A DNA stretch of 17,013 bases from an uncultured archaeon (GTDB taxonomy: Archaea > Asgardarchaeota > Lokiarchaeia > Sigyniarchaeales > SOKP01), in contig CAZGJX010000091.1 of NCBI GenBank assembly GCA_964525635.1, forward strand, positions 1 through 17,013, given 5' to 3'. Every line of letters starts with the position of its first letter. Position 1 is the stretch's first letter. Made by a program: the position numbers and the translations under genes. Positions 1 through 11,342 of this stretch are shown one piece after another. The notes under the pieces were generated by a model. It saw only the letters and a list, made by a program, of their open reading frames with translations, did no database searches and was not told the origin of the DNA.

Positions 1-588
1 TTCTTTTCCTAATGTTCTTATCTCGCTGATTATCTCTTTTCTGCCGAGAGGATCTAAATTGGACGTTGGCTCGTCTAAAATCAGTATTTCTGGCTCTCTA
101 ATCAAGGCAGAAGCTAAACCAATCTTTTGTTTCATTCCTCTTGAATAGGTTCTTATCTTTCTGCCTTTTGCCCCTTCCAGATCATATCTTCTCAATAGTT
201 CTTTTGCCTTTTCTTGAGCTTTTATCCATCCAAAACCGCTTACTCTTCCGAAATATTCCAAATATTCTTTACCCGTCATCTTTCCGTAAAACGCGGGATC
301 TTGTGGTGAGAATCCAATTAACTTTTTTGCTTCCATTGAACCCGCTTTAAGCCCTCTAATTTTAGCTTCTCCTTTGGTAATTGAAATTGCTCCAATTAGC
401 ATATTAATGGTCGAGGTCTTTCCTGCCCCATTTGGACCTAGATATCCATGAACTCCCTTTCTTACAGCTAAATTAATTTCATCGACGGCAGTAATTTTAT
501 TGTCTCTAAGACCATATACTTTGGTTAAGTCTTTACTCCATATTTCAAACTTATGTGGATTCACATGACGGATTTTTGCTTTTATCAT
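1..588 (-). CDS. ABC transporter ATP-binding protein (ABC-2/drug-resistance type), runs off the left edge; missing from the ORF track
   Basis: Manual translation from ATG 588 gives MIKAKIRHVNPHKFEIWSKDLTKVYG... with Walker A GYLGPNGAGKT, Q-loop FSPQ, signature YSRGMKQK and Walker B/D-loop ILILDEPTSNLDP. An in-frame TGA at 598-600 fixes the start. Confidence 0.96.
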   Translation of the reverse strand, partial: MIKAKIRHVNPHKFEIWSKDLTKVYGLRDNKITAVDEINLAVRKGVHGYLGPNGAGKTSTINMLIGAISITKGEAKIRGLKAGSMEAKKLIGFSPQDPAFYGKMTGKEYLEYFGRVSGFGWIKAQEKAKELLRRYDLEGAKGRKIRTYSRGMKQKIGLASALIREPEILILDEPTSNLDPLGRKEIISEIRTLGKE

Positions 589-1166: not shown

Positions 1167-1502
1167 CTGAGGTGCTGTTCTTGAAAAATCTTTGCAAAAT
1201 CTTTCATTAAAAATGATGGAAATGAATTAGTATCTGGCGAGCTTAACAATGGGGAATTCTATATCTCATTTCTCTCAAATAAAGTAGATGAGGAGCTTAT
1301 TAGTTATAAATTTACCTATGATCCAACAGATAATATCGCTGAGACAATTGATTTAACCTATTGGAATATAAAAGGTGTTGATGGAGTTGATGTTTTTCCA
1401 AATCTTGATGCCTATTACTATCTTAATGAGGAAGAATCAACCTTAACTAACGTTGTTTGTCATGCTTCTCAGATTGCCGTATATCTTAATGATGGAAAGG
1501 AG

Positions 1503-4500
1503 TTGGAATTTGATATAGCAGGAGAATTAGGAGAATATGATTCTCAACTGCTTGATAAAATTCACGCAGGTAATTATGCGGCACTCCATATAGATACAAA
1601 TATCAAGAATTTGGAGAGTTTGGAGTATCTAAAGATTGAACTGCACGATGTCTCGGGAAACATGCTCACATATACTCAATATATTTCAAAAGAAGAGCTT
1701 GAAATGTATGACAATACTATAAAAATCAATTTACCTGATGAGATAAATACACTGCAAAAAATAGTGTTTATACCTATTTTTAGAAGTGATCAAGAATATT
1801 CAAATGATAATGATATCGGTATTACAAGAATTCAAACAATTGAGGTTAATGGTGATTTACTTTCATACTCTGGAAACGATATTGAATATATTGATATTGA
1901 GTTAGAGTATGATTTAATTATCAATAATACAAATTCTGGATATGAACTCGCTTATGTTTTCAATGAAAGGTTAGAGCACCTGATATTTCCAGAAAGCACC
2001 CCAATTGTATATGATACTCTTAATGATGATAATGGTGATATTTTATCCTATATATTGAGGATACCAAAGCAATATATAAAATCTATTACAAATGAGACAA
2101 CATCTTTTAAAACTGGTGAAATTTTTGCAATCCGTTATAATTCCCCAGTAAAAAAAGGAATTTCTATGGCAATAGGGAAAATGTATTTTGAGAATAATTA
2201 TCATCCAGATATTAAGAAAGCACAACTTATGTTTATCAATGCTGATACATCCCAATCATATTCACAATTTACAGAAGATTATTATTATAGTGTGCCACTA
2301 CGGCTAACTCCATATGATACTGAGACTTCGGGACGATTTAAAGCAGTTAGGATTGATCTTAATTTCACGTCGCTTTATGAATTAATAGGGGAGGATACTG
2401 TAGATTTCAGCAATCTTGTATTTTCGGTACCTAATCCTTGTTATGAATTAACGATTAACGAGATCGTTATCATTAAAGACGCTTATGAACCTACTCCTGA
2501 GTATGGATCAGATGAAAGTAGAGTATGGCAATATAGCGAAATTGAGATGTTTCAAGCAAGTAATAATCCTACCCAAGATTGTTATCAGCTTTCTTTAGAA
2601 ACTGAACCCTTATTCTATCCCAATACTGAATGGATTGAATATTTGAACATATTTGACGAAGATGGTAATTATTATAGTGCGGGTATTACAGGAGATCAAT
2701 ATCAGCTTCTTTACAACCAAGATAACCAATCATTTACATGGAATCCAGAGTTCAACCAATTTCCATCCTATTTTGGGATGGAATGGGAGGAACCTCTTAT
2801 GATTGCCCCCAATAAATCATTATACTTCCAATATTGTACTCCCAGCTCATGGACAGAGCCTATCCGAATTGATAAGGAAAACATCGATCTTGAGTCAATT
2901 CGAGTTGTATATCAGTATAACAATCTTTTGAGACCTGAGCATTATGACTGGTATCATAATTATTTCAAACCATCCCATTCCTATGAAAATATTGCCTATT
3001 CATTTAGAGATGAGGTTGATTATAGTGTTACCCAATATTATCATGAATCATTTACCGTATATAGAAACGCATCTATATATACTCATACGTTTGATATAGG
3101 AGATCTAAACTTACAAGAGGATTTTATCAATTTAGGATTATATAAAATCGTGGGATTAACTCCTACGTTTGAGACAGAAATTCTAACAAATAATGAAAAT
3201 TATAATATTCATTTTAATAAAAATAATAATTCTTTGACTGTTGAAAATATCGAAAATACTGGTCTAAATAAATTTGATCTTATAACAGTAGTTCTAAATT
3301 ATAGTCATGGTCCAATTTCAAGTTATAGTGAGATAGAACTTAATGGTTATTTCAATGAGACCTATTTACAAGATCCTATGCAAAGTTTCTATGGTCATGT
3401 CGATATTGATTTTAACTATATAAATCCAGCAGGACAGGTTTTATTTGCTGAAAATTCTGATATTATTACAAGTGAAATTACCAGTTTTATTCCAATTTCC
3501 TACTGTCCAAATCCAGATATTAGCAATAATTATGAATTAATGAAATATCAATTGGATATATATGATAAATTTGAACTCTATTTAGATGATAGCTCCGTTA
3601 TTTATGAAGCTGATTTGAATCTTGATGGAGAACCTGAATATAAACACGAAATTGATCTTGATCAAGACTATATTGTGGATGTAATTAAATATGGAATACC
3701 CGATCCTGAGAATGAAGGACAGATAATTTGGCATACCATAATTCAGAAGTCAAAAGGATATGAATCAAAACTTACCAGAGAATCCGAACCAAGAGAGATA
3801 ACAAAATGGTTTGATATTGACGATAGAATATTTGCAACCTATGAGTTTAATTTAGCAAAGCTAATTCCAATGCTTTTACTTCCTACTGCCTTAATTGAGG
3901 GAGTTGCAAAAATGATTCTTCCTGATGTTGATTATTGGGCTCAGAAATCTGAACAGAGAGAGGTTACAAGAGAGGAATTTATACAATATAATTTTTATAG
4001 TATTACAGTTGATAACGATTGTGATGGATATAGTGATCAACAAATGAGCTATGAAAGAAATGATGTTTCAATTGATTATGAAGTTAAGACATTTAAAAAG
4101 ACAATCCTTGCCGCTAAAAATCAAAATCTTTATAATTTCATCACAGCATACATTGAAAGGAGTGTTAAAAGTTTTATAACAGATTCTCGAGAATCACTTG
4201 TCTTTAACGATGGACTTACAGAGGATATTCTTGATTCTGGTGATTTTAGTGAGTGCAATTGGCATGTAAGATATAATGAACAATATCTTGAGGCAACATA
4301 CAGGAAATTTACAGAAAATATTAGTACAATATACACAGAATCATATTCTCAAGAAAAGCTAACAATTACCGATTATAATGAAGAAGAAATTGAAGAACAA
4401 CGTGTTTATATTGATGATTTCAAGAGTAATGAGGTTGATGAACTTGATCAATATTTTAAGATTGCTGTTTTACAACACCAAATTACCAATGTAGATACAG

Positions 4501-7500
4501 GAGAAGCCCTGAATATTGAATTTGATCCAATTCTTCCCTATACAAATCCCTTAAATATTACATGGACAGGAGAGACATGGGGAAGTGATGATGTGCCTAT
4601 AAAATTAGATTCACTTCATGTCTTCAGGTTAAACGGTTCCTATACAACAAATTATTTTGAAAAGCAACTATATATTAGAATTCCCAATCGATATAGCCTC
4701 TATAATGATTACGGTATTCAATCCAGAGATGATACTTATGACAGTGGATATGCTCAATTTCTAACTAAGGGAATATTAATTACACCTCAAGATGGAGAGG
4801 TCTACTATACGGGAGATATAGAAGCGTTTATTGATGGAAGTGCCAAGACAGAAGGGCATTATTTCTTTGTTGATACTAATGAGGATGGATTTTTTGAGTC
4901 TATTTATATACTTAGTGCGCTTAATTCAACAGCAGAGGATGGAACTCCTTGCTATGATGTAATTAGTATTGGTTTTAATTACGATGGAATTCATGATTTT
5001 GTCCCATACGAGAAAATAAAGGAAAACAGCTATTCTCGAACCGATATATATGGTTTAAGTCAGGAAAGGGTAAGTTTTGGCTCAGATTGGCTTTATAACT
5101 TTGGAAAGCTTAAAAATGTAAAATTACTATTTCCAAATAATGATGAGATATGGGAGAATTACAGACCTAAAGATCATATTTTTGAAATCTATAAACTGAT
5201 TGATATTTCAAAAAATCCAAAATTCTCAGCTCTTTTTTACGAAGTTCGACATAAAACATACTCTATGGCTTGGAACAGCTACTTCAACCAATTAGCGAAT
5301 GATATTGCCGAACAAGTATTTACTGTTACTCTTACAGCTACAATATCTGCTTGTGTTGAGTCTGTTATGCTAGTATCTGTAATCTTAGCACCATATGCCC
5401 ACATAACAGCAACAGCGACGTATTTTGCGATTTATACCCTCCTTACCAAATTTTTTATCGATGGGGAGATTCACGAATCTGATTCGCGTACTAGAGCATT
5501 CAAATTCTATCCAGTGGACAGAGAAAGAAAAGGGACAACGTCTCTAAATGAGAGGAGTTATTGGGATCGTATTCTTAAGGATTCAACAATCGCCGCAATG
5601 ATAGGTCATCCTGGAGGATATTATCGAACTGTGAGCGGAGGTCCTCCCGAAGAACGATATACGGCTCAATTACTTGTTTCTCCTGATAATGGAGATCGTA
5701 TAGAGAGATCCCTTGGAGGATTTTTTGAGTTCTTGGCAGAAAATCTATTTAGCATGGGAGAATCTGATCCAGATACCTTTACTGCCCTTGATTTTGATGA
5801 CTTTAATATTGATTATTTCCTGCTTTCAAATGAATTATATGCCTATAATGGAAGATCCCATTATACCTTTAGAATATCTAACTTTACCTGCTCTGATTAC
5901 AATGATTATCGCGAGAATACATTGGGAGCCCTTCAAGATATGGTTAGAACCGCTTCAAATGGAGAATTAAACGCAATACGCCCTACTTGCGTGAATGGAG
6001 TCCCCGAATATGAGTTTATTAATAAAGATTCTCAACAATATCAGGGAATCTTGCCTTTAACATCACTTTATCGACCTATTGTTGTAAGTGAGGAAAGATA
6101 TAGCCAAATTATCGCAAGATCGGGACACCTTACAATAAACGCTCAAGGGATTGATTATAACAATTCATTAGGCATATATGCCTATGATTTAAATTTAATT
6201 GAATCTCAATTCTACAGAGCAAAAATTCCAATTAACGAAAATGGATTTGATTATCCCATTACAAATATCTACATTGATGTTGTTGAAAATTTTGCGGGAT
6301 TTGGAGATTCTTATCTGTGTAGATACCTTATGGTTAATACAAGTTATTTTGTAGTAGATGATGGAAACCTTTATCTTACCAAATCACTTGAAGAAATTGT
6401 CTCTGAGCAATACGGTGAAATTGAGGATCTTACTTCCTCTGAATATTCTCAAATTTACTATAAAATTCATATTATTTTTGATTTAATTGTTGCCGACACC
6501 TCAGAGGAAACTCATCAATTAGCCTTAGCACAGGGAACAACCTATGCAATCATGGATTATTTCAATCAGTATACCTATGCTGAAGTGTCAGCAAATATGA
6601 TTGCTGAAATTGCTTATACTGAGACCTTAACCTTCTGGTCTACATATATAAGCGCTCCTGCGGCATATTTTGCCTCCACAGTAGCTTCAGCAGCAATGTT
6701 ATCTGGACTTGCTTCGGCAGGAAGTATGCTAGCAAAATCTGCATTGGAAGCTTTGGTTATTTCTTTTAAGAGGAATTTGATTAAGACCTTATTTACCATG
6801 TTTGTTGCCGCCCCTATAAAAGAAGTGTTTGAAGAGATTATAAAGGATGGACTTATTGAGACATTAGCAGAAAGTTTTGTTGATTTCATGGGAGGTACAG
6901 AGGATATGGCATATTGGTTATCCTCACTGGGAACTTCATTTAGAGAGGTCAAAGGTCCAATTGGGCAACTGGTTTTAGGAGGTGATACAAATCTCCAGAC
7001 GCAAATTGCACTCGTACAGGCAATAGAACAGGGCGATATTGACACGATCCTTGAAATAGAGGAGAGACTTGAGAAGGAACGTGAAGACCAATTAGCCTTA
7101 GAGTCAGATCAGGAGGAAATGAAATACACTTGGAAGAAAATTCTCAGTTCTAAATTCTTTAAGTGTGCAATTCTTGCCATTCCAACCCTTTTCTACGCTC
7201 CACTTGGATTAGGTACGATAAATAAAATGTTTGATACCATGGGAAAGTGGGTGTCTAAATCCGCTTCAAATATCTATGGAAAAATAGAGTCAAAAATACA
7301 AGCATTTAGGAAAAACCGAATCTCATCTCATAGTTCAATTTCAATCGGACTTGAGCAACAATTATCTGTAGAAAATCTGTTCCTTCGAAATATGGAAGAG
7401 CAGATGAAAAAGCCTTCCGAACTTGATGACGTTCAGCTTAATGCCCTCTTTAGAGGGCAGCAAGAAATCGAGGTTGATAATATGCCAATTTGTATTATAT

Positions 7501-10157
7501 TTCCAGAAATAAATCCAAATCCTAAAGAGATTCAAAAGAATGAATTGGTGGATAATTTCAACGAGATTAGAGCAGTAAATGATAAAATAAAGCTTAAGAC
7601 AGAAAATATAGTAGATCCATATTCAAAACAGAAACTGATTACTACACATAATAATATAGATACTATAAAGCGAGTAGGGAAATATTCTGAGATTGTAGAT
7701 ACAGGAGATTATGAATCTTTTACTGCAGAAAAGATTATGACTGTTAAAGAATTCTTAAAGGCTAAGCATTTATTTGGCACAAATATTAACCTTGGAGTCT
7801 TGGTCAACGGTAAAAAAGTAAGTCTTGATTACATCATATCTCCAAATGATGATGTTGCTATTATGCCTCACATTGGAGGGAATGCTCATAACAATGTAAA
7901 TATAAACGATCCAAGGGTAAATGAGATAATTGATAAAATAAATAGAGTTTTAGATTCTGGATCATCAAAGAAATGCTTCATATTTTTAACTGAAGAGGAA
8001 AGAGAATATCTTTTAAATTATTATAAAGGATTATCTTCTGGATTATTCCAACAAAATGAATGGAATCCAAATGAGCCAAGTCCTTATGTTCCTCATTTGA
8101 AGTTTTTAATTGATGAAATGGTTATTCTCTTATTTGAATTAGAAATCATTGATAAGAAAACATATACAGCAATCGAAGATCTTAAAATTTATGGAAATAG
8201 AAGATTATCTTATGTTATAGACGGATTAAAAAGTACAAGTGATATTAGTAAATTTAAAGTTGGAGAAGAGACATTAGATAAATGGTTTGTACGAATTGAG
8301 AATATCATAAATACATATTATGAGACTCAGTTTAATATGTTAGAAGCGGAATATAATATTGGACTTCAAATAGAAAAAGAAAACAAATTATTTGCTGTTC
8401 ATGATTTCTTCAATTCTTTTTATTCATTATTTGGATTTACTAAAGAAAACAGATTCTATAGAGATGCTAGAATAATGTTGATAAGTTGGGGAGAAATTTT
8501 AAGATTAGCAGATTTACCTGAATTTAAGGATAATAGACTTCAAAATTTAGAGGATTTTATCGGTCGTGATACTCATCAAATATATAGATCATTAGTCCGA
8601 AATCCTTTTGCTATACCAGATATAAAAGCAGTAATTAGATTAGAATCAGATATTGAGACTGCTTTAAATACTAAGACTGAATTCTCACCTCAAGAAATAG
8701 AAGCTATTATGAATGAAATTCAATCAATAACTCAACAATATATAAATATTATACAAAATTATTTAAAAGGAGAAGATCTTCTGAAGAATCTTCCTGACGG
8801 TCCAAGAAAAAGATTACTACAAGATATTATTCATTATCCATACAATAATATTCTAGAAGGAATTCAGGATAGAAAGATACTTTCAAAATTGCTATTTGGA
8901 GGAGAATACGATCAAATTGGTAAATTTACCCACGAGAAAAAAAGGGTAGAATTGAAAAAATTGTTCCAAATAAAAATAATGGTTGAACAATGGTCTCTTA
9001 AGACATTTAAAGAATTAAAGATTGATATTACAAAGAATCTTTTAATTGATTTAAAACTCTATATCAATAATATAATTGATGATTTTATATTTAACAATCC
9101 GGAATATGATTATGTCAGCGATTCTGTCTTGCGATTTGGGGTATTTCATAATAAAGATTTTCTAAAAAAGGAATATAGGATGATTTATAATATTTGGAGA
9201 GTTTTTGCTATTTCCTACGAAGATCCTAAGATTTCTTTTAAAAAAATTCAAAAAGAGGTAGATATCGGTTATGGTTTAACACGGAGATTAAGGGGGGAAG
9301 GTGCAAATTATAATATTGGTACGGGGATATTGCTAAAATATTTAAATAAGATCCAAGGATTTTTGAGTTCTGAGAATGATATCCAAAAGAGAGAGCTATA
9401 TCAAGAAGCTATTGATACGATTAAGCATTATGCTGCTGACCGTCATTTAGGTTATGAATTCTATCAAGAGACTAAAGATATAAGGGGAGATTATAATCAT
9501 CTTTGGTATCAAAATTGGTATAAATCCACTCTGATTATTCTTGGATTGGCGAGATTAGGAGGTATTAATCCTCTGACATGTGAGCCGATTGAAGCGACGT
9601 TATTTGATAGCGATCATAATACAGAAGGCGGAGTTTTTCAACCGCATCATTTTAGTGTCAGGGAAAAGCATCTTCTTCTTGTAGGAAGAATATTTATTCT
9701 TAATAGTCAATGGCATGGACGTTTTAACACTCTTGCGCAGACAAGCATGGGTGTTCAATTGCAGCTACAATTGAGGGATGCAATTCTTTCTTTAATGGAA
9801 TCTGATAAGAAATTCATTGATGAGAATGATATACGACAAGCGTTTGGAGACCTTGAAATCTTTGGTAAAAGAGTTTCAGATTGGTGGATAAAAGATGATG
9901 ATTATGTAAAAAATATAGCACGATTTAATCAAAACAGAGAGTTAATTAAACAAGGTAATATATTTGAATTCATTGACAAGAATTTCGAATTAGAAGATGA
10001 AAGCAATCCCGTTTTAGAAAGATTTTGGAATGCTATGAAGGAGACGATGAGTGGATTTTTAATGCTTCATGATGATTTTGACTTCTCATATCTATTTACT
10101 CAGAAAGATATGGAGTTTATCAGAAAGACCTTCAAATTAGAAAATATAAGCAGTTAG
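1503..10157 (+). CDS. Giant multidomain protein (2884 aa from TTG 1503; frame open from 1185), putative polymorphic toxin: Ca-binding acidic stalk, hydrophobic region, internal Ubl-GG, HTH repeats, HNH-like nuclease
   Basis: Uninterrupted ~9-kb frame. Motifs DLNLDG (3612), DNDCDG (4011) and DTNEDG (4872). Hydrophobic segments at 3852-3923, 5316-5459, 6627-6767 and 7155-7220. MoaD-like ...VNGKKVSLDYIISPNDDVAIMPHIGG. C-terminal HH...H-x3-N motif. The CDS itself is certain, the function is inferred. Confidence 0.9.
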   Translation: MEFDIAGELGEYDSQLLDKIHAGNYAALHIDTNIKNLESLEYLKIELHDVSGNMLTYTQYISKEELEMYDNTIKINLPDEINTLQKIVFIPIFRSDQEYSNDNDIGITRIQTIEVNGDLLSYSGNDIEYIDIELEYDLIINNTNSGYELAYVFNERLEHLIFPESTPIVYDTLNDDNGDILSYILRIPKQYIKSITNETTSFKTGEIFAIRYNSPVKKGISMAIGKMYFENNYHPDIKKAQLMFINADTSQSYSQFTEDYYYSVPLRLTPYDTETSGRFKAVRIDLNFTSLYELIGEDTVDFSNLVFSVPNPCYELTINEIVIIKDAYEPTPEYGSDESRVWQYSEIEMFQASNNPTQDCYQLSLETEPLFYPNTEWIEYLNIFDEDGNYYSAGITGDQYQLLYNQDNQSFTWNPEFNQFPSYFGMEWEEPLMIAPNKSLYFQYCTPSSWTEPIRIDKENIDLESIRVVYQYNNLLRPEHYDWYHNYFKPSHSYENIAYSFRDEVDYSVTQYYHESFTVYRNASIYTHTFDIGDLNLQEDFINLGLYKIVGLTPTFETEILTNNENYNIHFNKNNNSLTVENIENTGLNKFDLITVVLNYSHGPISSYSEIELNGYFNETYLQDPMQSFYGHVDIDFNYINPAGQVLFAENSDIITSEITSFIPISYCPNPDISNNYELMKYQLDIYDKFELYLDDSSVIYEADLNLDGEPEYKHEIDLDQDYIVDVIKYGIPDPENEGQIIWHTIIQKSKGYESKLTRESEPREITKWFDIDDRIFATYEFNLAKLIPMLLLPTALIEGVAKMILPDVDYWAQKSEQREVTREEFIQYNFYSITVDNDCDGYSDQQMSYERNDVSIDYEVKTFKKTILAAKNQNLYNFITAYIERSVKSFITDSRESLVFNDGLTEDILDSGDFSECNWHVRYNEQYLEATYRKFTENISTIYTESYSQEKLTITDYNEEEIEEQRVYIDDFKSNEVDELDQYFKIAVLQHQITNVDTGEALNIEFDPILPYTNPLNITWTGETWGSDDVPIKLDSLHVFRLNGSYTTNYFEKQLYIRIPNRYSLYNDYGIQSRDDTYDSGYAQFLTKGILITPQDGEVYYTGDIEAFIDGSAKTEGHYFFVDTNEDGFFESIYILSALNSTAEDGTPCYDVISIGFNYDGIHDFVPYEKIKENSYSRTDIYGLSQERVSFGSDWLYNFGKLKNVKLLFPNNDEIWENYRPKDHIFEIYKLIDISKNPKFSALFYEVRHKTYSMAWNSYFNQLANDIAEQVFTVTLTATISACVESVMLVSVILAPYAHITATATYFAIYTLLTKFFIDGEIHESDSRTRAFKFYPVDRERKGTTSLNERSYWDRILKDSTIAAMIGHPGGYYRTVSGGPPEERYTAQLLVSPDNGDRIERSLGGFFEFLAENLFSMGESDPDTFTALDFDDFNIDYFLLSNELYAYNGRSHYTFRISNFTCSDYNDYRENTLGALQDMVRTASNGELNAIRPTCVNGVPEYEFINKDSQQYQGILPLTSLYRPIVVSEERYSQIIARSGHLTINAQGIDYNNSLGIYAYDLNLIESQFYRAKIPINENGFDYPITNIYIDVVENFAGFGDSYLCRYLMVNTSYFVVDDGNLYLTKSLEEIVSEQYGEIEDLTSSEYSQIYYKIHIIFDLIVADTSEETHQLALAQGTTYAIMDYFNQYTYAEVSANMIAEIAYTETLTFWSTYISAPAAYFASTVASAAMLSGLASAGSMLAKSALEALVISFKRNLIKTLFTMFVAAPIKEVFEEIIKDGLIETLAESFVDFMGGTEDMAYWLSSLGTSFREVKGPIGQLVLGGDTNLQTQIALVQAIEQGDIDTILEIEERLEKEREDQLALESDQEEMKYTWKKILSSKFFKCAILAIPTLFYAPLGLGTINKMFDTMGKWVSKSASNIYGKIESKIQAFRKNRISSHSSISIGLEQQLSVENLFLRNMEEQMKKPSELDDVQLNALFRGQQEIEVDNMPICIIFPEINPNPKEIQKNELVDNFNEIRAVNDKIKLKTENIVDPYSKQKLITTHNNIDTIKRVGKYSEIVDTGDYESFTAEKIMTVKEFLKAKHLFGTNINLGVLVNGKKVSLDYIISPNDDVAIMPHIGGNAHNNVNINDPRVNEIIDKINRVLDSGSSKKCFIFLTEEEREYLLNYYKGLSSGLFQQNEWNPNEPSPYVPHLKFLIDEMVILLFELEIIDKKTYTAIEDLKIYGNRRLSYVIDGLKSTSDISKFKVGEETLDKWFVRIENIINTYYETQFNMLEAEYNIGLQIEKENKLFAVHDFFNSFYSLFGFTKENRFYRDARIMLISWGEILRLADLPEFKDNRLQNLEDFIGRDTHQIYRSLVRNPFAIPDIKAVIRLESDIETALNTKTEFSPQEIEAIMNEIQSITQQYINIIQNYLKGEDLLKNLPDGPRKRLLQDIIHYPYNNILEGIQDRKILSKLLFGGEYDQIGKFTHEKKRVELKKLFQIKIMVEQWSLKTFKELKIDITKNLLIDLKLYINNIIDDFIFNNPEYDYVSDSVLRFGVFHNKDFLKKEYRMIYNIWRVFAISYEDPKISFKKIQKEVDIGYGLTRRLRGEGANYNIGTGILLKYLNKIQGFLSSENDIQKRELYQEAIDTIKHYAADRHLGYEFYQETKDIRGDYNHLWYQNWYKSTLIILGLARLGGINPLTCEPIEATLFDSDHNTEGGVFQPHHFSVREKHLLLVGRIFILNSQWHGRFNTLAQTSMGVQLQLQLRDAILSLMESDKKFIDENDIRQAFGDLEIFGKRVSDWWIKDDDYVKNIARFNQNRELIKQGNIFEFIDKNFELEDESNPVLERFWNAMKETMSGFLMLHDDFDFSYLFTQKDMEFIRKTFKLENISS
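7650..7880 (+). other. Internal ubiquitin-like beta-grasp domain (ThiS/MoaD/SAMP family) ending in di-glycine, aa ~2050-2126 of the giant ORF
   Basis: IKRVGKYSEIVDTGDYESFTAEKIMTVKEFLKAKHLFGTNINLGVLVNGKKVSLDYIISPNDDVAIMPHIGG follows the MoaD/SAMP pattern along its whole length (TV.e.L, V.VNG, l...D.VaI.P.i.GG). About 77 aa, with GG at 7875-7880. Confidence 0.85.
8160..9353 (+). repeat. Four degenerate ~110-125-aa helical repeats with XRE/Cro-like HTH cores inside the giant ORF
   Basis: Cores start at ~8160 (TYTAIEDLKIYGNRRLSYVI..VGEETLDKW), ~8535 (RLQNLEDFIGRDTHQIYRSLVRNPFAIPDIKAVIRL), ~8868 (DRKILSKLLFGGEYDQIGKFTHEKKRVELKKLFQI) and ~9234 (SFKKIQKEVDIGYGLTRRLRGEGANYNIGTGILLKY). Spacings are 375, 333 and 366 nt. 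Confidence 0.5.
9558..9728 (+). other. HNH-like (beta-beta-alpha-Me) nuclease motif near the C-terminus of the giant ORF
   Basis: GGINPLTCEPI...FQPHHF...RIFILNSQWHGRFN, with HH at 9645-9650, H at 9714 and N at 9726. The spacing fits HNH/HNN nucleases, but the central Asn position is Arg. Confidence 0.6.
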
Positions 10158-10185
10158 ATAAAATATATATGAGGAAAAATATATT

Positions 10186-10566
10186 ATGAGTATGATGAGT
10201 ATGAAAAAGTATAGAGAAATTAAAATAAAAGACTCAAGATTGCGAAAAATTCGAAATGAATTTCGGAAATTAATTAATCTGGAATGTAAAAAAAGAGAAG
10301 TTGAAATTGATAATAAAAAATGGGCAATAGGAAAAGATTCAGATGGTAAATATAGACCTACAGAAGAAGATAGAAAATTAATTGGTCAATTAAATAGTCA
10401 ATATTGGGCAATAGAATCCCCTCGTAGAAGGTCAATAATTAGATGTAATATTTGCCATGAATTAGAAAGTGATAGAATTTATTACCCAGAAACGGGAGAA
10501 TGGTACTGCCCTGACTGCTATGACAAATTTTATGTACATCCCGAACAATTTGTACCTCAAGGATAA
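10186..10566 (+). CDS. Small basic protein with a C-terminal C4 zinc finger, candidate immunity/partner protein
   Basis: CNIC-x17-CPDC. Starts 28 nt after the giant ORF stop on the same strand, with GAGGA at 10171-10175. The start could be any of the clustered ATGs at 10186-10201. Confidence 0.85.
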   Translation: MSMMSMKKYREIKIKDSRLRKIRNEFRKLINLECKKREVEIDNKKWAIGKDSDGKYRPTEEDRKLIGQLNSQYWAIESPRRRSIIRCNICHELESDRIYYPETGEWYCPDCYDKFYVHPEQFVPQG

Positions 10567-10705: not shown

Positions 10706-10897
10706 ATTCTTATTTCATTTGCGGGAAATACCGACGCCAATTTAAAAGATCTTCTAACTAAAGCTAAGAAAAAAATTGGTGCTGGCGGTACGATAAGAGG
10801 GAAAAGTATAGAACTTATGGGTGATCATCGCTTTAAAATGAAAAAATTTCTCATAGATATGGGATATGATGAAGATCGAATAAGAATTAAAGAATAA
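10706..10897 (+). pseudogene. sui1: 3' half of translation initiation factor aIF1/SUI1 (5'-truncated); missing from the ORF track
   Basis: Translates to ILISFAGNTDANLKDLLTKAKKKIGAGGTIRGKSIELMGDHRFKMKKFLIDMGYDEDRIRIKE*, containing the SUI1 hallmark GGT...IEL.GDHR. In-frame TAA at 10703-10705, no start codon before the conserved core, N-terminal part absent. Confidence 0.88.
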
Positions 10898-10932
10898 AGG
10901 GAGAATAAATAACTTTTTAAAAGTTATTCAAA

Positions 10933-10954
10933 TTTTTTTTTTCATATTTTTTTT
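10933..10954 (+). terminator. Archaeal-type oligo-T terminator (T10 + T8) downstream of the sui1 fragment
   Basis: T10-CATA-T8 about 35 nt after the TAA at 10897. Confidence 0.45.
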
Positions 10955-11063
10955 AAATGTAGATGTTATGTAAACTTAAAAAATATAGTTGAAATTCGTC
11001 ATCAGTTTTAATTTTATAGAATAAAAATGTTGATAGAAAAAAAAAAGAAGTTTAATTTAATAT

Positions 11064-11342
11064 TTATGCAGGTCCACCATCAGTAACAATCTAACCATAG
11101 ATACTAGTAAGATTCCCTCTAGCCCAAGTAGCAGGTCCCATGCTGTATCTAGAATTACCACCATGAAATGTTACTCCATATTGTAAAGAAGGTAAACTCA
11201 CCCATCCAATTAAAAAACTATCATAAATCACTGTAGATAATGTAATTCCTTCAAACATACTAACCATATTTGTCACACTTGATACGTCCCAACTACCAAT
11301 AGATTGATTGAATGAAAGTGCATAATAGAACATATAAATCAT
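11064..11342 (-). pseudogene. DUF285/BspA-like surface-repeat protein remnant, 5'-truncated with an internal nonsense codon
   Basis: [27 protein letters not shown] is the DUF285 repeat, and ...YDSFLIGW...[11 protein letters not shown]...ARGNL...YG*IVTDGGPA* is its usual C-terminal cap. The W of the GW.ITDGG motif is TAG at 11091-11093. Only ~1.5 repeats remain and there is no signal peptide. Confidence 0.85.

Follow-up and report, generated by a model that had tools for sequence, protein, structure and literature searches.

Background

Bacterial polymorphic toxins such as CdiA/CdiI and Rhs (PMC3482391) combine a giant conserved N-terminal part with a variable C-terminal nuclease and a small neighbouring gene that co-varies with it. 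Here we describe a family of giant proteins with a similar layout in Promethearchaeota (Loki-type Asgard archaea), as seen from a 17,013-nucleotide contig of one such genome (CAZGJX010000091.1, assembly GCA_964525635.1; contig C91 of that genome, hereafter "the window", with other C-numbers denoting contigs of the same genome). In the window, an open reading frame (ORF) of 2884 amino acids (aa) carries a ubiquitin-like (Ubl) beta-grasp domain directly ahead of a putative nuclease, and a 126-aa gene follows. We find that among the stalk-linked relatives of this cargo the fold in this position is retained and its canonical cut site is not, and we propose, with a probability of roughly 0.4, that the uncut Ubl domain of a giant polymorphic toxin serves as a handle for the Ubl-binding unfoldase machinery of a target cell.

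The likeness to the bacterial toxins extends to orphan tip cassettes and, in some Asgard members, to leucine-rich repeat (LRR) partners and a pre-toxin peptidase-like domain. The bacterial survey includes the His-Me tips Tox-HNH-HHH and LHH as well as Imm-LRR (Zhang et al. 2012, PMC3482391), and in its accessible sections Ubl proteins appear only as JAB substrates. Unlike in the toxins described there, the scaffold of the Asgard family matches no Pfam entry, its N-terminal anchor is made of several helices, and beta-grasp domains fill its pre-toxin slot; Asgard toxicity and immunity are putative.

Other described systems share individual features with the window domain. The SAMP, MoaD and ThiS modifiers and the linear Ubl-MoaE fusions that JAMM proteases cleave (PMC4443979; PDB 5lda, 2q5w) have its fold, belong to a recognisable sequence family and, in the fusions, occupy an internal position before another domain. 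The JAMM-cleavable fusions keep the motif P-x-x-x-G-G, whereas 0 of 19 Asgard fused copies do, the terminal Gly being replaced. The IMT domain of nuclease bacteriocins and type VI secretion effectors is likewise a small domain just ahead of the nuclease, and it is linked to AAA+-dependent entry (PMC9040868; colicin processing, PMC4026351); its sequence is unrelated to that of the Asgard domain, and the AAA+ link is known for IMT and an analogy for the Asgard domain. Ciliate BUBL loci, as described in PMC8616854, encode Ubls in a processed polyprotein with BIL intein-like domains flanked by Ubls, and a non-conjugatable Ubl among them is associated with ADP-ribosylation. These loci are eukaryotic, use intein-like processing and are described there without giant stalk or partner gene, whereas no HINT domain was found at the Asgard locus. 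Neither the family, nor Ubls placed in a pre-toxin slot, nor such Asgard polymorphic toxins turned up in the literature, with subscription papers outside this coverage. Rad23, Parkin and midnolin contain integral, non-cleavable UBL domains, beta-grasp folds without a cleavable Gly-Gly (GG) that act as docking handles; these are eukaryotic intracellular adaptors, whereas the Asgard fusions are toxin-like. Giant Asgard proteins have been counted but left unexplained (bioRxiv 10.1101/2023.11.21.568195).

Domain organization of the window protein

The features of the locus are as follows, with positions in the window and the basis of each call in brackets.

1185..1502, + strand: in-frame open extension with no start codon, the broken 5' edge of the gene (homology to the paralog on C9 from 1202)
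1503..10157, + strand: ORF of 2884 aa, the 3' portion of a giant family protein (ORF call, paralog comparison)
1503..5312, + strand: remnant of an acidic, extracellular-type stalk, in which DxDxDG loops occur three times and N-glycosylation sequons 13 times (once in the cargo)
5331..7220, + strand: region with hydrophobic helices at aa 1277-1295, 1726-1744 and 1888-1906, holding the family-defining block aa 1661-1916; candidate membrane-insertion region
7509..7592, + strand: last conserved motif INPNPK (aa 2003-2008), the first exchange point; homology to C9 ends at 7592 (DNA comparison)
7674..7880, + strand: beta-grasp domain of SAMP/MoaD/ThiS type, aa ~2058-2126 (Pfam, model, sequence comparison)
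7875..7883, + strand: G2125-G2126-N2127, a di-glycine one residue off, with Asn in the canonical terminal Gly column (alignment, Pfam)
7881..10157, + strand: cargo of 758 aa, mostly helical in the model (predicted model)
9645..9716, + strand: putative His-Me finger site, H2715-H2716 ... H2738 (motif only)
10186..10566, + strand: partner gene of 126 aa with a four-Cys zinc-finger pattern and no signal peptide (sequence)

A preliminary description, made from the letters of this DNA, had identified the ORF and the 126-aa gene 28 nt downstream, an acidic N-terminal part, hydrophobic helices at aa 787, 1277 and 1888, and G2125-G2126 followed by an Asn-rich linker; all of these are present where it placed them. 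Its assignment of a MoaD/SAMP-like domain also holds. When excised, the domain matches Pfam ThiS (PF02597) at 24.9 bits against a cut-off of 22.5, and it shares 41% identity with the free SAMP/MoaD-like protein that the genome encodes on C60, a modifier that is single-copy in the lineage. The predicted model matches a Promethearchaeota ThiS cluster with a template modelling (TM) score of 0.81; against MoaD (2q5w_D) it reaches a Foldseek probability of 1.00 but an E value of 0.22, and a VIA Z of 5.4.

Exchange of the beta-grasp slot across the family

Using the conserved block aa 1661-1916 as query, we found 77 loci (27 from genomes and 50 from metagenomes), and the homologous loci carry the name Promethearchaeota. 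The tails of 600 aa or more, 61 after removal of redundancy and here called tips, are mutually unrelated past the last NPNPK motif. The closest paralog, on C9, is 70% identical up to aa 2057 and then unrelated; its DNA diverges at nt 7592, upstream of the Ubl, and C9 has no Ubl. Downstream genes change with tip type, with LRR and other partners behind other tips, and C109 of the same genome holds an orphan tip and partner whose cargo is 63% identical to that of the window. The polymorphic-toxin layout that had been suggested for the window is thus borne out by the family: because the stalk is conserved, the tips are variable, the downstream genes co-vary and orphan cassettes are present, we think it likely that these are giant membrane-anchored polymorphic toxins of Promethearchaeota. 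The anchored form is seen on C5, with a multi-helix N-terminus and a frame of ~14,260 codons. This frame is split by one in-frame TGA (C5:63999-64001), which may be a nonsense mutation, an assembly error or recoding.

Pfam matches among the tails are to LAGLIDADG, GIY-YIG, helix-turn-helix (HTH), S24/S26, ThiS and ubiquitin. LAGLIDADG, GIY-YIG and HNH-like nucleases with HTH are homing families, and truncated copies are scattered through the genome; the tips could on that account be homing-endonuclease-like selfish modules that move themselves from one copy of a giant adhesin gene to another, with the Ubl an accidental passenger. We consider this highly improbable, since the tips are terminal fusions in frame with no intron or intein context, they have dedicated co-varying partner genes, and other members carry S26-like domains and EndoU-like tips.

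The slot that holds the Ubl has a fixed position, starting 34-91 aa past the NPNPK motif. It is filled by a SAMP-type domain in 12 tips, a ubiquitin-type domain in 1 and a third beta-grasp class in 20 (33/61), never with two in one tail. The ubiquitin-type member, L051, matches PF00240 at 37 bits with its GG disrupted and at a similar offset, and is related to the lineage's free ubiquitin; two of the three classes (SAMP-type and ubiquitin-type) are therefore related to the cell's own free modifiers. Profile-profile comparison among the slot classes gave no significant link, leaving the third class unconnected by sequence. Its predicted model (pLDDT, the per-residue model confidence, of 66) nonetheless retrieves ubiquitin-like folds in nearly all of the top-50 VIA rows, the best being Atg12 (Z 6.3, root-mean-square deviation 2.8 over 79 aa). 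Foldseek places Atg8-family chains or complexes in its top-50 rows, with E above 0.001.

All 14 stalk-linked homologs of the window cargo are preceded directly by a beta-grasp domain. On the cargo tree the slot class changes at least 3 times, a single clade being rejected (p-AU 1e-38), and in L058 a third-class domain stands ahead of a cargo that aligns with the window's from aa 2134 onward at 37% identity. Exchange at the slot thus proceeds separately from both stalk and cargo. The alignment to L058 also supports a cargo boundary immediately past the Ubl, as had been proposed.

A beta-grasp domain could fill this slot passively, in the same toxin system and with no specific partner: it might nucleate folding, act as a spacer or form a leader that unfolds easily, and so assist the folding or threading of the cargo. 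That three sequence-distinct classes interchange fits such a role, as do the high divergence of the fused copies and the many tips without a beta-grasp domain; Ubl fusions are, moreover, well known to aid folding. Any small stable domain would then serve, yet those recognised in the slot all have one fold, and two of their classes are related to the cell's free modifiers. We regard a passive module as unlikely, and whether the Ubl is an active handle rather than a passive domain is, in our estimate, an even call.

A fourth slot domain of ~100 aa is unclassified and is possibly another beta-grasp. It occurs in L022, L024, L025, L036, L055, L056, L093, L099, L100 and L102, mostly in a subfamily with tails of ~1,900 aa. 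Two further observations concern Ubl genes: P0020 (275 aa) consists of four tandem ThiS-like domains, each ending K-N-G in place of GG, and the genome's free ubiquitin-type gene (C105:6189-6486) is frameshifted in the assembly and intact in relatives.

Register of the Gly-Gly motif

The preliminary description took the di-glycine of the window as an intact cleavage site at which a deubiquitinase (DUB) would release the nuclease. The alignment does not support this. Free copies read P-x-x-x-G-G, like MoaD and SAMP2, and the window reads P-H-I-G-G-N: G2126 occupies the penultimate Gly column, N2127 the terminal one, and an extra Gly one place earlier makes the apparent GG. The Pfam alignment accordingly ends at 75/76 for the window and at 76/76 for a free copy. 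An in-register GG (P+4, P+5, counted from the Pro) is present in 30/30 free SAMP-type copies and in 0/19 fused SAMP-type, 0/20 third-class and 0/1 ubiquitin-type domains, or 0/40 fused copies in all; the third-class domains have no GG at all (20/20). A conserved cut site at the GG is ruled out by these counts. The homolog comparison that had been suggested thus contradicts conservation of the GG, while a cargo boundary directly after the Ubl is supported by the homology to L058 that starts at aa 2134.

A protease of the target or host, of JAMM or Atg4/UfSP type, might still cut after G2126 and free the nuclease, either as first described or by recognising a single Gly. A literal GG is present in the window and in P0012, the penultimate Gly (P+4) is retained in 11/19 fused SAMP-type copies, and the cargo begins directly after the Ubl. 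The genome encodes eight JAB proteins, six with an intact JAMM motif, and HvJAMM1 cuts linear SAMP1 fusions, in the SAMP1-MoaE case exactly after the terminal Gly (PMC4443979). The free SAMP-type genes of this order (L003-L020, L143-L198) mostly carry one residue past the GG (25/30), and so need protease maturation. Six members (L026, L036, L037, L054, L092 and L101) have an S26/S24-like peptidase domain ahead of the tip, with Ser and His retained, which is a candidate autoprocessing module; that these six tips never also carry a Ubl favours cleavage as well, although as kin they are not independent. Set against this, the shifted GG occurs in 2/19 fused SAMP-type copies only, Gly at P+4 is absent from 8/19, the third class has GG in 0/20, and a delta-GG fusion was left uncut by HvJAMM1 (PMC4443979). 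We searched the 86 loci L021-L106 with a profile of the eight JAB proteins and found no JAMM gene linked to the toxin loci. A canonical cut at the window GG is very probably absent, and release of the nuclease by any such protease seems to us very unlikely. Since the apparent cut site is a register artefact, the idea of DUB gating should be set aside unless a cut is seen in vitro.

A single clade of the fused SAMP-type copies was not rejected (support 68/78), and independent origins of these copies are for that reason not demonstrated.

An EndoU-like motif ends the tips L026 (C147:4228-6028), L036 and L092. A distinct partner family follows these tips, in three tandem copies on C147.

Putative nuclease and partner gene

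In His-Me finger nucleases the catalytic His ends strand 1 and a metal-binding His or Asn lies in the next helix (definition in PMC5714182). Across 17 homologs of the window cargo, H2716 and H2738 never vary and H2715 hardly does, and their spacing fits a His-Me finger; the loop Asn is not conserved. The nuclease region has no Pfam match. The conserved histidines speak for the HNH-like character that had been assigned to the cargo, and Pfam and, as discussed below, the model of the site do not confirm it; we consider the cargo a probable His-Me-type nuclease.

The partner protein matched no known family, and ESM Atlas feature searches with the partner and with the nuclease region gave scores all under 0.9. 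Its zinc-finger family stands behind 14 of the 18 tips scored as His-Me type, the remaining 4 being followed by LRR-like genes, and the sole further tip with this partner, that of C9, shows the same His pattern by eye. From this association the 126-aa protein is a candidate immunity protein.

The cargo type of the window may have a second delivery route. L028 (C43:22735-28195) places a distant cargo homolog on a different, low-complexity N-terminus, followed by two tandem partner genes, and the ORFs listed beside a partner homolog at C151:1652-2260 include no giant gene.

The composition of the tail and partner bears on where they reside. The tail that follows the hydrophobic helices has a cytoplasmic composition (1 sequon versus 13 in the stalk) and the partner has no signal peptide, as would be expected if the giant protein were a surface sensor whose Ubl and nuclease tail lay inside the cell that makes it, restrained by the partner until a trigger sets them free, for suicide defence, kin recognition or DNA-binding regulation. 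A cytoplasmic Ubl would also need to lose its GG to evade the producer's JAMM proteases. The window helices are, however, weakly hydrophobic (peak 1.3-2.0, where the N-terminal anchor of the C5 frame reaches 2.3-3.0), and tip polymorphism, orphan cassettes and tandem partners are hallmarks of inter-cell conflict (PMC3482391). We judge such a producer-side sensor quite unlikely.

Proposed mechanism

In our preferred account, that of an uncut Ubl acting as a handle, the stalk of a full-length copy would reach a neighbouring cell and the hydrophobic helices would insert into its membrane. The non-cleavable Ubl would then serve as a mimic or handle for Ubl readers of the target, either an AAA+ unfoldase of Cdc48 or PAN type or a ubiquitin receptor, and this machinery would draw the cargo through to the cytoplasm, in the way that IMT and FtsH do for nuclease bacteriocins (PMC9040868). 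The His-Me-type tip would cut DNA unless the zinc-finger partner is present, and without its terminal Gly the fusion would be safe from the JAMM proteases of the cell that makes it. Such a role has precedents: SAMP1 binds a PAN2 peptide weakly, the turnover of sampylated TBP2 needs Cdc48c and PAN2 (PMC4895103), and Asgard UEV proteins bind ubiquitin (PMC9192718).

Several points weigh against this account. Delivery, membrane insertion, use of the Ubl as a handle, DNA cleavage and immunity are all steps that we infer. The Ubl is not universal, as the other 28 of 61 tips hold the unclassified domain (10), the S26-like peptidase (6) or neither (12). The third-class fold rests on the model of pLDDT 66, with the Foldseek E values above and Z under 8. 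A pure handle leaves the retention of the penultimate Gly in 11/19 fused SAMP-type copies unexplained, and these copies may stem from one fusion, with the Gly loss a single neutral event. In an 845-aa model the nuclease site, where a beta-beta-alpha fold would be expected, has a pLDDT under 50, and Foldseek, VIA and Atlas searches with that model returned only generic helical matches for the cargo.

If the uncut Ubl does serve as a handle, a function would be given to giant genes, and to some LRR genes, of Loki genomes, and because one slot seems to be served by three different beta-grasp domains, the system would offer a tractable test of Asgard Ubl-binding recognition. That Asgard toxins should convergently use ubiquitin folds without the GG would be unexpected and directly testable. 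In a broader and rather doubtful version, Asgard contact toxins would have repeatedly co-opted SAMP-type, ubiquitin-type and third-class folds, stripped of the cut site, as mimics by which the victim's Cdc48, PAN or ESCRT receptors import or extract the nuclease; this would amount to a prokaryotic hijack of a proto-eukaryotic ubiquitin system.

Truncation and genomic neighbourhood

The ORF had been described as one polypeptide, but it is not a whole one: the reading frame extends upstream to 1185 without a start codon before 1503, and DNA homology to C9 begins abruptly at nt 1202, corresponding to C9 residue 2660. The locus is therefore a 5'-truncated, headless copy of a giant gene that lacks its 5' part and membrane anchor, and with them the export or anchor signal seen in the multi-helix anchor of the C5 paralog frame. 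The junction at this edge is bridged by contigs from 2 runs (X1, X3). An assembly chimera was also ruled out for the stalk-Ubl-cargo junction, which contigs from 3 other runs cross with zero differences; all the other runs that cross junctions are from 2019 salt-marsh samples and may represent a single campaign. The copies on C9 and C4 are 5'-truncated as well. Given this truncation and the further truncated and orphan copies in the genome, the window copy is most likely a silent donor cassette or remnant. A scan for sigma-70 promoters upstream of the gene found nothing, with a bacterial model that is unsuited to archaea.

At three loci (window 1-588, C9:61379-63329 and C5:69628-71557) the giant gene has an ABC ATPase gene as the neighbour of its 5' end, which might bear on export. 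The two genes are divergent in the window; on C9 and C5 they share an orientation and a permease is present too. Right past the partner gene, the window holds a 5'-truncated remnant of a SUI1-like translation factor (10709-10955; 91% DNA identity to C144:7004-7251), which may mark the insertion edge of the cassette. A short DUF285 (BspA-like repeat) fragment at 11091-11342, with paralogs on C157 and C99, is probably a gene remnant.

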